Source: a virus. Taken from it: a stretch of DNA of 11,267 nucleotides. The notes beneath the pieces are model-generated. The model was not told the DNA's origin. It did no database searches and saw only the letters and a program-made list of their open reading frames with translations. A program made the translations under genes and the position numbers. This document shows, one piece after another, positions 4,641 to 9,245 of this stretch (positions are counted from its first letter, which is position 1; every line of letters starts with the position of its first letter). The stretch is from the IMG/VR virus record IMGVR_UViG_3300020577_012183; one strand, 5' to 3'.

Positions 4641-4961
4641 TCACAGTCGTTCAACAACGGTATCTGAGGACGCGACCCAAACAGGTCGACCTTCCCACAA
4701 CACCAGATAAAATTCATTGGCCGGTGGTGAGAAACCATACGGCCCACGTCCTTTTTTCCTCATGGCTGCATTGAATGCATCAGGCTGGCTGTTGATGAAG
4801 AGGGCGTGAGTTTCATTTGGAATATCACAAATGACAATATCCAATTCTTCTCCCAACAACGCATTGAATGACCTCGGAACGTTCCTCGCCTTGATGCTTG
4901 AACCTTCACGACGTTCAGTCAATTTGACCATGGTTCCGGGTTCAAGTTTCGTCGTCATCAT
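4641..4961 (-). CDS. Small paralog A (106 aa), array family
   Basis: N-terminus KLEPGTMVKL and a later ..EFYLVLWEG.. motif. It overlaps B's 3' end by 20 nt. Confidence 0.45.
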   Translation of the reverse strand: MMTTKLEPGTMVKLTERREGSSIKARNVPRSFNALLGEELDIVICDIPNETHALFINSQPDAFNAAMRKKGRGPYGFSPPANEFYLVLWEGRPVWVASSDTVVERL

Positions 4962-5325
4962 TCACCGTCACGTCTCGTTCTGTCGGCATGCTCGTGATGT
5001 TGGCACCCTTCGATTTCGCCCATTCCTTGATGAAGTTATCGAATGTCAGGCGAATGATTCCCATGTCTAACAGGCTGAGATTTTTCAAGTGATTGCTAGA
5101 GATGGTGAATGATGCAGCCTCGACGACGGCGCCGACGGGATTCTCAATGTCATATGCGGGTCTCAACCGATACTTGGGTTCTTGGTGTATGTCGGTTGCC
5201 GCCGCAGGAATGACCTGCACGACCTGATAGATAAGGCGCCGTTGAAAAGGTGAGTACTCAGTCACCTTGCCTGTCCACATCACAATGTCACCAACGTTTA
5301 GCTTTTCAAGTGGCTTCGGTGTCAC
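4942..5325 (-). CDS. Small paralog B (127 aa; GTG start with GGTGA SD)
   Basis: PLEKLNVGDIVMW... and the C-terminal LKNLSLLDMGII parallel paralog C. Confidence 0.55.
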   Translation of the reverse strand: MTPKPLEKLNVGDIVMWTGKVTEYSPFQRRLIYQVVQVIPAAATDIHQEPKYRLRPAYDIENPVGAVVEAASFTISSNHLKNLSLLDMGIIRLTFDNFIKEWAKSKGANITSMPTERDVTVNDDDET

Positions 5326-5388
5326 TGTGGGTCACCCATATTGAGAAGGTGGAATCTATCAATGGTCATGTGCAGGTTATATCGTGTG

Positions 5389-5823
5389 TCACTCGTGGGC
5401 ATTATCAACCTGTTGAGCAGTCTCTGAGACCATCCCACCCTTGACGGCCAGATCGCGAATTATGTTACCTAATTCAGCATACTTCGTGGCGATATCGAGG
5501 AGTTCAATCTTTTTCAAATTACGTAATTCATCATGATAAATGATCAATGTTGAATCTGCACCGCCTGGTGCCTTTCCTTTGCGTGTTGGAAAGAAAGTGA
5601 AAATCGGCCGAATTCGCAAATAACCACGAACTTCCATGGGCTTCATTTTCTTTCCCGACACTGGATGAAAAACTGTTTCATATATGCTAAGACGTTTTTC
5701 CTTAGCTATGGGCGATTCATAATTCATCGTAATCTGGTAGATGACACCACCCGTTGATTCCTTGTCAGAAGCGAAGGTGACGATATCACCAATTTTCAAA
5801 CCAATTTTTTCAAGTGTATTCAT
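5389..5823 (-). CDS. Small paralog C (144 aa)
   Basis: MNTLEKIGLKIGDIVTFASDKESTGGVIYQI, with a C-terminal IELLDIATKYAELGNIIRD. GGAAGA SD upstream. ATGA overlap with D at 5820-5823. Confidence 0.6.
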   Translation of the reverse strand: MNTLEKIGLKIGDIVTFASDKESTGGVIYQITMNYESPIAKEKRLSIYETVFHPVSGKKMKPMEVRGYLRIRPIFTFFPTRKGKAPGGADSTLIIYHDELRNLKKIELLDIATKYAELGNIIRDLAVKGGMVSETAQQVDNAHE

Positions 5824-6551
5824 GACTCATCATCTTCCGGATCTGAGGGTTGATGGGATGGGCTCGTCGTCACTGTTTTCGATGTCGGTATCTGCCACTT
5901 TTGCGAAAGAGGATTTGCTACTGACAATTGTGTTTGAGCTTGTTGTTGTTGTATCACGCTGCGTATCAATTCTGCTTGTCTCGCTTTCATGCGTGATTTC
6001 TTTGTGTTTTCGTCTTCGACTACGGGTGGAGCGAATATATCCTTGACGATACGTCTGATACCAAATGACCAATTCTTGAATGATTTTACTTTCGACCAAC
6101 ACTTGCGAAATGTCGAAGACAAACATCTGTAGGATCTCCAAAACATTTTAACCGGCCAATGACCTGTGTTGCATCGCTCTGTTAATTTGACGTCTGGATA
6201 CTGATAATCCATATGAAAGATCAGACCTTGAGGAAGTTTCATGGGTTGAACAGTTACCATTTGTTGAGCGAGGGCTGGATAATTGACTCGCCTCATGATG
6301 GGAAACACGAAGTTGCTGAAGATGTCTTGACTGTAGGGTTCAACCGACCACAGAATGGTCAGCTGTTCATCGTTGACTGCGATGACAATTCCTTGACCTC
6401 CGTCCTTGATGTGCTTTACCTGATCACCAGGCTTGAGGATGTCGATACCACCTTCACGAATAAAAGGCCATGGGTCGGCATAATCCGTCGGAGGAAGCGT
6501 GGATGGATATTTGTCGCTGTACGTGCGATCGTATGTTTTAAGGCTGCTCAT
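5820..6551 (-). CDS. Paralog D (243 aa, double length; PGD-LWS unit plus long low-complexity tail)
   Basis: ..RPF-like lead-in DPWPFIREGGIDILKPGDQVKHIKDGGQGIVIAVNDEQLTILWSVEP. ATGA overlap with E at 6548-6551. The 3' half also has an alternative open frame, 5830..6141. Confidence 0.5.
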   Translation of the reverse strand: MSSLKTYDRTYSDKYPSTLPPTDYADPWPFIREGGIDILKPGDQVKHIKDGGQGIVIAVNDEQLTILWSVEPYSQDIFSNFVFPIMRRVNYPALAQQMVTVQPMKLPQGLIFHMDYQYPDVKLTERCNTGHWPVKMFWRSYRCLSSTFRKCWSKVKSFKNWSFGIRRIVKDIFAPPVVEDENTKKSRMKARQAELIRSVIQQQQAQTQLSVANPLSQKWQIPTSKTVTTSPSHQPSDPEDDES

Positions 6552-6850
6552 TTACGTCCACACTTGCAGTTTGATTCTCGACACCAACGTTGACCCGTGA
6601 CTGTACACAAACGTTCAACTGAATTCTTAGGAAGATAAAAATCTTCTTCTATAGACATCGGATTCCAACGAGGTTCGATAGACCACAACACCAAGAAGTC
6701 AGATTTGTTACGAGCTATGAGAACTCCAAACCCACCTTCTCTTTCATGTGTCACCAAATCTCCTGGTCTTTTTCGATGAAATGGGCGTTTCCATTTTTCA
6801 ATGCCAACGGTATGGATGTTCCCAGAATCTGGGTGCAATCGTAAGGTCAT
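6548..6850 (-). CDS. Paralog E (100 aa)
   Basis: KRPFHRKRPGDLVTHEREGGFGVLIARNKSDFLVLWSIEP. ATGA overlaps on both sides. Confidence 0.6.
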   Translation of the reverse strand: MTLRLHPDSGNIHTVGIEKWKRPFHRKRPGDLVTHEREGGFGVLIARNKSDFLVLWSIEPRWNPMSIEEDFYLPKNSVERLCTVTGQRWCRESNCKCGRK

Positions 6851-7810: not shown

Positions 7811-7833
7811 CCCTAATGATGCATGTGTTTAAC

Positions 7834-8139
7834 CTAATTGGTGTTCTCAAGAAGTTCTGAAAATTCAAACCACTCGCGATTGAACCAGACTAATTTGGAT
7901 TCAAACAAAATAACGCACCAATGTTGTGTAGTTGCACCCACCCTGTAAGGTCCTGGATCGTTTTTGGAAATTAATGTGAATGTGTCACCCACTCTTATGT
8001 TCACGTAACCGCCTACTAAAAATTGTCGTCGACCTCGTTCTGTGACACACTGAAGGACCCATCCTCCTGAACCAACCGAGAAACGCCAACACCAAAGTTG
8101 ACCAGGTCTAAGATCAATATCGACCAGGCGTTTTTCCAT
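7834..8139 (-). CDS. Paralog I (101 aa)
   Basis: MEKRLVDIDLRPGQLWCWRFSVGSGGWVLQCV. AAGGTAGGG SD lies inside J's 3' end. Overlaps J by 26 nt. Confidence 0.5.
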   Translation of the reverse strand: MEKRLVDIDLRPGQLWCWRFSVGSGGWVLQCVTERGRRQFLVGGYVNIRVGDTFTLISKNDPGPYRVGATTQHWCVILFESKLVWFNREWFEFSELLENTN

Positions 8140-8611
8140 ATGCCCTACCTTCTATTCCATAGACGATGTCGAATTGAGGTTCTGGTCGACGCCTTTTGAT
8201 TTCAATCCATGGATCGCCTTTGGGATCAGGATTTTGATGCATGATGACGTCTGTCACGTCTGATTGTTCATTCATCAAATTTTCAAGGCTACCATACCTG
8301 GTCATGAATTCCGGGAATGTCAGGTAGTCAGGATCAGATTCTGATGACCATTGTGCTCGTAACGTTTGTGGCGGAAGTGTCGGAGTTTTAAACTGTCGAG
8401 GTGACTTTGACCAGATGACCTCGCACAGCACTTTGCCAAGATCTTCTTCCTGTCGACGAGAGATGCACATGCCATATGAGTGAAGATCATGTTTGTGTCG
8501 AACCGCCTCACCCGGGATGATGCATCGAGGATCGTCACTGCGTCCAGCCCATTTTCTGCTGGGATCGATCGCTATCAAATCGCGTAAATTGTAAGTCTCT
8601 AAGTCGCTCAT
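8114..8611 (-). CDS. Paralog J (165 aa; unit plus C-terminal extension)
   Basis: MSDLETYNLRD...IIPGEAVRHKHDLHSYGMCISRRQEEDLGKVLCEVIWSKSP...DPDYLTFPEFMTRYG...GDPWIEIKRRRPEPQFDIVYGIEG. ATGA overlap with K. Confidence 0.55.
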   Translation of the reverse strand: MSDLETYNLRDLIAIDPSRKWAGRSDDPRCIIPGEAVRHKHDLHSYGMCISRRQEEDLGKVLCEVIWSKSPRQFKTPTLPPQTLRAQWSSESDPDYLTFPEFMTRYGSLENLMNEQSDVTDVIMHQNPDPKGDPWIEIKRRRPEPQFDIVYGIEGRAYGKTPGRY

Positions 8612-8904
8612 TCACTTCTACGCTTTGCTTCGTCAGAAATAAAAACACCAAGTTTTGCATACTCAGACGCTAAATCAATGAGTGATTGAGGTTGACAGTG
8701 GGCACTAGAAAGAGAACGTTTGCGGCGACCTTTAAAATCAGGTGACAACATGCCCAAGATGGGTGTCAGTTTTAATATTGATGTTCCGCCCCAAAATTTA
8801 GTGTTTTGTGTGACAGCAGTGACCCGATAAAGAATTCCCGGTCCCACATCATTGTACGCACATGTGCAGAGTTGACCGACTTGCCAGACGTGTTCTTCAC
8901 TCAT
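8608..8904 (-). CDS. Paralog K (99 aa from ATG 8904; track's 8994 start is TTG)
   Basis: MSEEHVWQVGQLCTCAYNDVGPGILYRVTAV...SPDFKGRRKR...QSLIDLASEYAKLGVFISD parallels C. The ATG at 8904 forms an ATGA overlap with L's stop (8901-8903). Confidence 0.55.
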   Translation of the reverse strand: MSEEHVWQVGQLCTCAYNDVGPGILYRVTAVTQNTKFWGGTSILKLTPILGMLSPDFKGRRKRSLSSAHCQPQSLIDLASEYAKLGVFISDEAKRRSE

Positions 8905-9245
8905 TTTCTTTTCGCTTGTAACAGGATCAAGACGCCATGGCGGGACAACACAGTAAAAGTCGTCAAGTGATCCCAGTCTGATACGCCGGGACAACCATCG
9001 ATTTTACTAAGGACGAGCAGCAATCCATTGGCCAATGTCAACATTGAAGCGCGTTTACGTTGTTGTTCAGTTCCTTCACAGTATGCTTTAAAGTCTTTTG
9101 ACCTAATTGCATGAATTCCCGGTGATCGAACCAGGTCACCAGGCTTGACGTGTGTCCAATACAGGCTTTCTGTGTCACTTTTTTCAAAGTTATGGTACAC
9201 CAAAGCCATGACCAAACAATATTCTCTGGAGCTGCATGAGTACAT
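8901..9245 (-). CDS. Paralog L (114 aa; alternative ATG at 9209)
   Basis: ..WTHVKPGDLVRSPGIHAIRSKDFKAYCEGTEQQRKRAS.. (DFK..RKR as in K). Confidence 0.45.
   Translation of the reverse strand: MYSCSSREYCLVMALVYHNFEKSDTESLYWTHVKPGDLVRSPGIHAIRSKDFKAYCEGTEQQRKRASMLTLANGLLLVLSKIDGCPGVSDWDHLTTFTVLSRHGVLILLQAKRK

Follow-up and report, generated by a model that had tools for sequence, protein, structure and literature searches.

The best-conserved part of the first quarter of the major capsid protein (MCP) gp23 of phage T4 has been identified as the Gol region, through which EF-Tu is bound and Lit activated (PMC3014915). The Gol peptide is part of the capsid protein itself and no separate gene encodes it. 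MCP-derived accessory proteins that take part in shell assembly or redirect it include the T4 vertex protein gp24 and other capsid paralogues, which keep the whole HK97 fold, and phage satellites carry MCP homologues that redirect capsid size. The T4 internal proteins IPI-III are small, look non-essential and share a conserved ...KTY... motif at the N-terminus, and the T4 capsid targeting sequence is MKTYQEFIAE (PMC8442874). Here we describe an array of small genes in the IMG/VR virus record IMGVR_UViG_3300020577_012183, a stretch of 11,267 nucleotides (nt) that was analysed whole and is referred to as the window. At 4641-9245 on its minus strand there are, as a preliminary description of this DNA had stated, 12 open reading frames (ORFs) in a row, encoding proteins of 66-243 amino acids (aa) that are named o1 to o12 from low to high coordinate. 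The locus is a conserved, translationally coupled small-protein operon that lies behind a vault-protein-like gene in an uncultivated large phage.

Sequence comparison indicates that o4, o5, o6, o7 and o10 (family A) are chimeras, in which a common N-terminal barrel is joined to a tail of 20-60 residues homologous to a segment of a T4-type virion protein, in each case one of its best-conserved parts. That the regions behind the barrels are fragments of T4-type major capsid and portal proteins was overlooked in the preliminary description, and it alters the view of the array as a whole. The stretch of gp23 to which the o4 tail is homologous (~91-131) is that of Gol, and the tail would likewise be a short segment outside a folded capsid protein; unlike Gol, it is fused to a barrel and separately encoded, alongside other capsid and portal pieces, and its likeness to the EF-Tu-binding Gol is shown only as positional homology to the conserved first-quarter region of gp23. 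With gp24 and the capsid paralogues the tails would share an MCP-derived accessory role in shell assembly, or in redirecting it, and the same P-domain contacts, but they keep only 20-60 residues on an unrelated barrel. Like IPI-III the array proteins are small, non-essential-looking and marked by an N-terminal KTY; the sharing amounts to three residues, however, the array proteins have no protease site, their N-terminus is predicted to be a barrel strand, and no sequence homology was found. The chimeric barrel plus capsid/portal-fragment design has not been described before. We propose, at a confidence just short of even, that these proteins constitute a new phage protein class, in which a barrel handle displays a mosaic of capsid, portal and sheath interface peptides and may steer or poison head assembly, or blind capsid- and portal-sensing immunity (including the Gol/EF-Tu route).

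Virion-protein tails of family A

The MCP pieces were located with a hidden Markov model (HMM) of 652 positions, for which IMG/VR had supplied 74 full-length T4-like capsid genes; T4 gp23 has 521 aa, and the IMG/VR relatives of the T4-type MCP that were aligned reach ~690 aa. Array coordinates below refer to the minus strand, and other loci and relatives carry L and P numbers. The o4 gene (5820-6551, 243 aa) encodes its barrel at 6336-6551 and, at 6195-6320, the Gol-region segment FSNFVFPIMRRV...VQPM...FHMDYQYP, which corresponds to T4 gp23 ~91-131. Residues 78-122 matched the Pfam Gp23 N-terminal motif (2.5e-7; 30.9 bits against a cut-off of 24.4) over profile positions 4-48, that is 45 of 376, and o4 also matched phrog_138 (8.6e-7) and the custom MCP HMM (1.3e-11, positions 80-124). 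In tblastn the segment matched 140 phage records, in which the annotated rows were major capsid proteins. Behind it, residues 127-169 (6045-6173) form a Cys/Trp/Arg-rich helix with the pattern C-x2-GPW-x3-hWR-x2-R, conserved in o4-like proteins. The Ser/Leu/Arg/Trp-rich stretch that follows this helix has a composition like that of an out-of-frame translation, yet it is conserved, and AlphaFold2 predicts a confident helix.

In o5 (6548-6850, 100 aa) the barrel core (6671-6769; domain A HMM, 2.3e-19) is followed by a portal clip-domain motif, RWNPMSIEEDFYLP (6623-6670), equivalent to T4 gp20 ~326-343. An HMM made only from o5-like tails matched, at 1e-13 to 1e-9, ~30 T4-like portal ORFs of 640-700 aa whose position is 5 kb upstream of capsid genes, and the two of these that were checked against Pfam matched Portal_T4 at ~1e-70. 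An independent portal HMM matched o5 at E 0.003 and its relatives down to 4e-9. The matches of o5 and its relatives are confined to portal HMM positions ~279-341 (T4 gp20 ~326-380) and do not amount to the full portal fold of clip, stem, wing and crown; in longer-tailed relatives they extend over the channel loop and the stem helix alpha7 (357-376). One relative, P0146, scored 17.4 bits against Portal_T4 (PF07230), under the cut-off of 22.9.

The o6 protein (6847-7233, 127-128 aa; barrel core 7042-7140, domain A HMM 3.1e-16) ends in ~50 residues (6871-7026) that correspond to the P-domain sheet, P-loop and C-terminus of the MCP (T4 gp23 from ~447). Residues 68-109 matched the Pfam Gp23 C-terminal motif (E 0.0027, profile positions 314-354), and the custom MCP HMM was matched near its C-terminal end (3.5e-10, positions 574-624 of 652). 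By comparison, o7 (7341-7541, 66 aa; domain A HMM 4.1e-12), which is joined to o8 by an ATGA overlap, consists of the barrel only. Behind its in-frame TAA (7341-7343) the same frame runs on as a cryptic continuation of 36 codons (LAAKLSRDIAAEIDADIFRDLEAL..., 7233-7340), which fills a 107-nt "gap" and whose TGA overlaps the o6 ATG (TGATG). Since the TAA and the continuation are the same in all assemblies compared, the stop would represent either a fixed nonsense truncation or programmed read-through; tails of the capsid spine-helix type are in frame in relatives (L020 1634-1915, P0134 and P0154).

The fifth member, o10 (8114-8611, 165 aa; barrel core 8399-8518, domain A HMM 2e-11), carries a degenerate MCP strand-like motif, TLRAQWSSES (8336-8365), behind which lie a stretch that may be portal-like (8267-8317) and a C-terminal part that is conserved in proteins of the o10 type. 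Its L016 orthologue matched the MCP HMM at 1.1e-5 over positions 370-401 (KSRQLKAAYS... in T4), a profile of o10 tails gave 67 MCP matches at ~1e-3, and orthologues matched portal HMM positions 404-469 at E 0.003-0.01. The o10 peptide FPEFMTRYG had been read by eye as a capsid C-terminal motif, an assignment that was dropped because the orthologues show the MCP strand and the portal-like stretch instead.

Neither o4 nor o6 contains the full HK97 fold with A- and P-domains (PF07068). They are fragments and not capsid proteins, so that the precomputed "Gp23" label on o4 is misleading. No DNA similarity of the array to any capsid gene was found. A split capsid gene reassembled from pieces was also considered and rejected, as the pieces come to well under one HK97 fold, lack the A-domain and are not collinear.

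The barrel is found well outside the window. When 1.84 billion representatives were scanned with the barrel profile in HMMER, 195 clusters (50% identity) were obtained at E<=1e-3, and the matches listed were, besides a few repetitive false positives, proteins of 60-230 aa that mostly begin with MSLKTY. A significant MCP piece was present in 78 of 147 family representatives, in classes at HMM positions 75-130 (~57 cases), 362-412, 409-433 and 562-625 (~19 cases); all of these fall within the N-arm and P-domain and none comes from the A- or I- (insertion) domain. Some family members carry portal pieces instead, the o10-like proteins are mosaics of MCP and portal pieces, and P0066 and P0110 have the same barrel with a tail-sheath C-terminal domain (phrog_10244, 1.7e-4; phrog_23, 9.7e-4), so the fused pieces are not restricted to head proteins. 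In P0020 (154 aa) there are two barrels, one with a capsid strand piece and the other with a capsid C-terminal piece, a natural fusion which hints at a joint action of different members next to one another. Searches for the barrel were negative in 50,697 GenBank phage records, in all of 79 loci around genuine T4-like capsid genes and in GTDB genomes. IMG/VR has one contig with the barrel and JGI five loci, four of them on contigs of 2-5 kb and the fifth on a 28.5-kb contig that is also in IMG/VR.

It might be argued that the tails are non-functional debris, i.e., capsid and portal gene fragments fused by chance through recombination or homing endonucleases, or artefacts of gene calling, as GIY-YIG genes lie inside or beside the array in L005 and L020 and by gene 23 in T4, o7 has an in-frame stop, and gene callers conflict on o4, o5, o7 and o8. 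The same architectures nevertheless recur across the 195 clusters with conserved motifs and intact frames, orthologues of 44% identity keep the capsid fragment while DNA similarity to capsid genes is absent, and AlphaFold2 is confident for the barrels and the o4 helix. The debris explanation is largely refuted by this conservation, and we regard it as highly improbable.

With family alignments, AlphaFold2 predicted a confident five-stranded beta-barrel for family A, the predicted local distance difference test (pLDDT) being ~90-96 over most of the barrel. The strands are predicted at residues 3-8, 30-32, 44-47, 53-59 and 63-70 of o4 and at 2-7, 16-18, 36-39, 45-51 and 55-62 of o6, strand 1 being the conserved N-terminus MSLKTY. 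The capsid-like tails were predicted at low to moderate confidence and mostly as coil. In o4 the block means of pLDDT were 75-95 over residues 1-70 (89-95 over 31-70), most of 83-113 fell below 50 and the helix at 121-145 reached ~90; in o6 the barrel was confident and the tail mostly coil with pLDDT 61-80. These models support the term "small beta-barrel" for family A, whereas "KOW/SH3-like", the other half of the fold first suggested for the array, is not established. Five short strands, a GD-x-V turn opening the core and a length of ~60-70 residues are what family A has in common with SH3-like, Tudor and KOW barrels. No significant similarity, structural or by profile, to solved SH3-like, Tudor or PRC members was obtained, fold searches gave no significant neighbour, and sequence searches of the PDB with o4, o6 and the family profile returned nothing meaningful. 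KOW (PF00467) had no match in Pfam scans of the 12 ORFs (E<=1) or of 40 family members (E<=0.1); sub-threshold Pfam matches in a few family A members were to SMN_Tudor (0.002), SH3_12 (0.0036) and MSSS (0.052). The possibility that the barrel is an intein or split intein was discarded for lack of splicing motifs.

The position of the N-terminus bears on another explanation, according to which the MSLKTY... start and an LxxKW motif target these proteins to the scaffolding core, so that they are packaged in the head and injected with the DNA as internal or ejected proteins. Of 147 family members, 94 start with an h-[KRQE]-T-Y motif, o4-like proteins show no variation at T6 and Y7, the LxxKW motif of o4 (5892-5912), which is part of the o4-like consensus, resembles the N-terminus of the MCP propeptide, and the C-terminus of P0038, a relative of o4, significantly matched MCP positions 3-40 (propeptide). 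The resemblance to the targeting sequence covers only three residues, however, and the N-terminus is strand 1 in a high-confidence prediction and, being built into the barrel, would not be a free cleavable peptide. No L/I-x-E protease site follows KTY. The propeptide-like match is significant in that one relative only, and profiles of the pooled C-terminal region of the o4-type (type-1) proteins and of the "NPCGE" tails had no match among head-gene-locus ORFs. Packaging and ejection are in our view improbable.

Families, gene order and neighbours of the array

The preliminary description regarded the array as a single family of at least 12 diversifying KOW/SH3-like paralogues with a shared signature, for which cargo, adaptor, anti-defence or host-interaction roles were suggested. 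A [PVI]G[DETQ]x[hydrophobic] turn does occur once in each of the 12 proteins, far above chance (shuffles: mean 1.2, maximum 6; 0 of 5000 reached 12), although this motif is five residues long and was defined after the sequences had been inspected, so that the count overstates its significance. The stricter form PG[DETQ]x[h] is present in 9 of the 12, and in 4 of the 7 members outside family A (shuffle mean 0.18). The complete signature PGDxV...GxG...hLWS is found only in o4, o5, o6, o7 and o10; what all twelve share is the short turn.

Tests of homology drew the same boundary around family A. The o4, o5 and o6 proteins matched one another in blastp at 2e-9 to 2e-6, o7 and o10 were reached by a first-round HMM (E 4e-4 and 7.5e-3), and with a family A HMM of 148 sequences, searched against ~11,400 ORFs, all five members scored 2e-11 to 4e-19 and no other array member appeared even at E<=0.01. 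After enrichment with orthologues, hhalign united o2, o3 and o11 as family B (g2-g3, 96.7% probability, E 3e-10; g3-g11, 94.6%, E 6.7e-8; g2-g11, 83%; E values overall 3e-10 to 8.5e-6). Family A reached a probability of <=20% with every other group, over the PGDxV stretch only, and its best local matches, to gY, g3 and g12, lay on the turn at 8.6-20%. Significant homology is therefore limited to five plus three members in two families. At the E value of 0.01 that the preliminary description itself had named, a family of twelve fails and a family of five passes, and o3, which had been offered as a fourth example of the signature (LKIGDIVTF...), belongs to family B.

The turn, the small beta-barrel of family A, the weak Tudor/SH3 matches of some members and the faint hhalign matches on the turn can all be cited for a single diversifying family. 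Such a reading leaves the capsid and portal fragments out of account, and it does not fit the distribution of the genes, because phages that are only 30-57% identical contain an orthologue of every single member, arranged in the same order. This argues that the array is an old, ordered operon and not one recently expanding, contrary to the diversification under selection that had been envisaged. We accordingly give the one-family reading little probability.

The seven genes outside family A encode further small proteins that share only the PGDxV-type turn, and by the comparisons above o1, o8, o9 and o12 form four separate conserved families, each with its own orthologues. In family B, o2 (4942-5325, 127 aa; orthologues in L005, L015 (P0012), L016 and L020) has a C-terminal LLDMGIIRLTFDNFIKEWAK helix, o3 (5389-5823, 144 aa; homologues P0007, P0009 and P0010) combines an N-terminal IGDIV region with the C-terminal helix ELLDIATKYAELGNIIRDLA, and o11 (8608-8904, 98 aa; orthologues in L015 and L016) is a short member; when read as 128 aa, to 8994, it overlaps o12. 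The operon ends with o1 (4641-4961, 106 aa; RGPYGF...LVLWEGRPVWVASS), which has orthologues at L015 10456-10791 and L017 2399-2737. The o8 protein (7538-7810, 90 aa), with the pattern RRFxPGTFxV...GW...TLEEWE, has orthologues in L005, L015 and L016 and two copies in L020, and its hhalign probability against family A is 1.5%. The o9 protein (7834-8139, 101 aa) contains an RPGQLW turn and has an orthologue at L020 570-962; neither o1 nor o9 was significantly linked to family A or B by HMM or hhalign. Finally, o12 (8901-9245, 114 aa from the first ATG; 102 aa from 9209 according to the gene callers) has a KPGDLV turn and an ATGA overlap with o11, it has orthologues in L016 (a gene of 110 aa) and in L015 (an ORF not called as a gene), and it reached 8.6% against family A. 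Profiles of family B, o1, o8, o9, o12, gX and gY gave no match among 8,686 ORFs from T4-like head-gene loci.

Among the 11 junctions of the array there are 6 ATGA overlaps, 2 longer overlaps (26 and 20 nt) and 3 gaps (23, 107 and 63 nt); the joining by overlaps noted in the preliminary description is borne out, and the genes are translationally coupled. Their strong divergence at the DNA level, also noted there, was confirmed, as the only repeats between array genes are 18-23-mers at chance level. No sigma-70 promoter or terminator signal inside the array exceeded shuffles. A 9-bp GC-rich perfect inverted repeat without a T-run (GGTCCAGAC...GTCTGGACC, ~9285-9312, minus strand) lies between the stop of the upstream gene and o12, and could be an attenuator or processing site that divides that gene from the array. 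The window is a complete JGI contig and differs by 1-4 mismatches from parts of a 30-kb Logan contig and a 44-kb JGI contig, the sole differences being C>A, G>A and G>A clustered at 1435-1439, inside the ORF 1017-1907, and T/C at 10728 in the upstream gene. Gene callers conflict at 5820-6593 (L007 12019-12782), where the JGI calls replace o4 by an antisense 126-aa ORF (window 6213-6593) and a 98-aa C-terminal piece; in the Logan calls o7 and o8 are absent and o5 is truncated.

The upstream gene (9334-11267, minus strand) is the 3' part of a major vault protein (MVP)-like/SPFH gene (MVP_shoulder 1.3e-30, Band_7 1e-6) that continues beyond the window; in the source contigs the full-length protein has 886 aa and combines SPFH/Band 7 with MVP shoulder and vault-repeat domains. 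Its homologues among GenBank phage records, 39% identical, belong to uncultured phages of 462-735 kb, and there appears to be no earlier description of a vault-like cage protein from phages. The likeness to major vault and SPFH cage proteins belongs to this neighbour; no array member resembles a known vault-interaction domain, and the link is positional only. Four other loci contain the same small genes in the same order, namely L005 (forest soil), L015 (on the 163-kb Logan contig DRR213774_1093, covered within 10 kb of the array), L016/L017 and L020 (IMG/VR), with a protein identity of ~20-57% between array relatives. The array follows the MVP-like gene wherever the upstream side is visible, being preceded by a homologue in L007, L015 (893 aa, MVP-like) and L016 (638 aa, Band_7). 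Huge phages carry the MVP-like gene without the array, and no array was found in the huge-phage locus L004, which has such a homologue.

Within ~12 kb there are genes for a phage Cpn60, an AAA+ ATPase, a TANGO2-like protein, an IF1-like protein, a metallophosphatase and a GH5 glycosidase, together with a T4_Y16D gene. The Cpn60 (551 aa) follows a 100-aa gene, a possible co-chaperonin (L012, the 44-kb JGI contig, 1-4783; L015 16467-20411), and the Cpn60, AAA+ ATPase and TANGO2-like group is kept near the array in both long loci. GIY-YIG endonuclease genes are located inside the array in L005 (1022-1588) and a few kb away in L020 (8652-9614), and the window is without one; in T4 the GIY-YIG gene segD adjoins gene 23. 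On the plus strand of the window, a gene for a glycine-rich protein with long poly-Gly runs (2860-3792; Gly_rich_2 and a weak tail-fibre-assembly PHROG) precedes a gene for a family 2 glycosyltransferase (3805-4632), and both are convergent with the array, o1 being the array gene next to the latter.

Possible roles in head assembly and defence

The explanation we favour, to which we give somewhat less than an even chance, is that the tails are trans-acting mimics of head-assembly interfaces. It is preferred because one theme would cover the capsid, portal, propeptide and sheath pieces, and because a phage chaperonin is encoded nearby. Each tail would fold only by docking where the authentic segment docks, on the MCP P-domain, the portal or the scaffold; weakly predicted tails beside confident barrels are as expected for segments that fold on binding. 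The segments mimicked would be the Gol-region N-arm/P-domain strand, the E-loop-equivalent strand, the spine helix, the P-domain sheet with the P-loop and C-terminus, the MCP propeptide motif and the portal clip/stem motif, with the tail-sheath C-terminus added in relatives. The shared barrel would serve as a common handle for one partner, for example the neighbouring chaperonin or AAA+ proteins or the vault-like protein. Coupling and an order conserved across diverged phages point to co-production as a set, and this set of tails may cap or chaperone the nucleating head and the growing shell, or set their timing; the target would be the phage's own large capsid or, in a dominant-negative fashion, that of a co-infecting T4-like competitor. 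The T4 genetics of the matching segments also speak for this explanation, as these segments contain sites of gp23 mutations that bypass gp31/GroEL (A455V; G292S/V306I/V307I), head-length mutations (268-287, and 457-461 near the quasi-threefold axes) and the portal-facing residues Met98, His282 and Met284, with Met444 just upstream of the C-terminal piece (PMC9546572).

Several observations weigh against interface mimicry. The phage's own MCP, portal and sheath genes were not found: megablast of the window against GenBank phages and a scan of JGI metagenomes with an edge protein returned nothing, and a concatenated-fragment search returned only the window's own proteins. The operon is set among accessory-looking genes and not within a structural module that could be recognised, it lacks a T4-type late promoter (TATAAATA), and the complement of family A genes varies from 2 to 5 among relatives, which would be unusual if they served a core function in morphogenesis. 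Two of the five window copies match the MCP poorly, since o10 reached only E 0.08 and the spine-helix-like peptide in the o7 continuation (AAEIDADIFRDLEAL) aligned weakly with MCP positions 414-441 (E 0.002 in a search of 4 sequences). We know of no precedent for such proteins.

The main rival, which we consider rather unlikely, is that the proteins are immune decoys or antagonists, whose tails soak up or block virion-sensing defences, or occupy EF-Tu, before the real virion proteins accumulate. Candidate sensors would be Lit (for the gp23 Gol peptide), CapRel and PifA (capsid) and Avs (portal). The o4 tail corresponds to gp23 91-131, the most conserved stretch of its first quarter, capsid proteins are recognised triggers of defence (PMC9712102) and portals are Avs triggers. 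The fused pieces stem from three different hallmark virion proteins, and an accessory-gene setting, a variable number of members and small proteins are typical of counter-defence loci. On the other hand, sensors such as Avs and CapRel recognise folded proteins and are not known to recognise peptides of 20-50 residues like the tails, and a sensor should be activated, not blocked, by a copy of its trigger. Beyond capsid, portal and sheath matches, Pfam and PHROG scans of the ORFs pointed to no family of defence or anti-defence proteins, neither padloc nor an anti-defence library having been used; capsid is mentioned nowhere in a compendium of 268 anti-defence proteins, which also contains no decoy of this kind; and gene order and orthology are steadier here than in most counter-defence islands.

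For annotation, the public designation "Gp23 major capsid protein" on o4-like genes is wrong, and the barrel family of 195 clusters is without description and missing from GenBank phage genomes. If the tails do act as decoys, they would be the first counter-defence that copies conserved virion motifs recognised by bacterial immunity. If interface mimicry is true, the tails would be the first natural trans-acting "interface peptides" that control or sabotage HK97-type head assembly, and they would offer a route into how the heads of very large phages nucleate, get sized and avoid mis-assembly.

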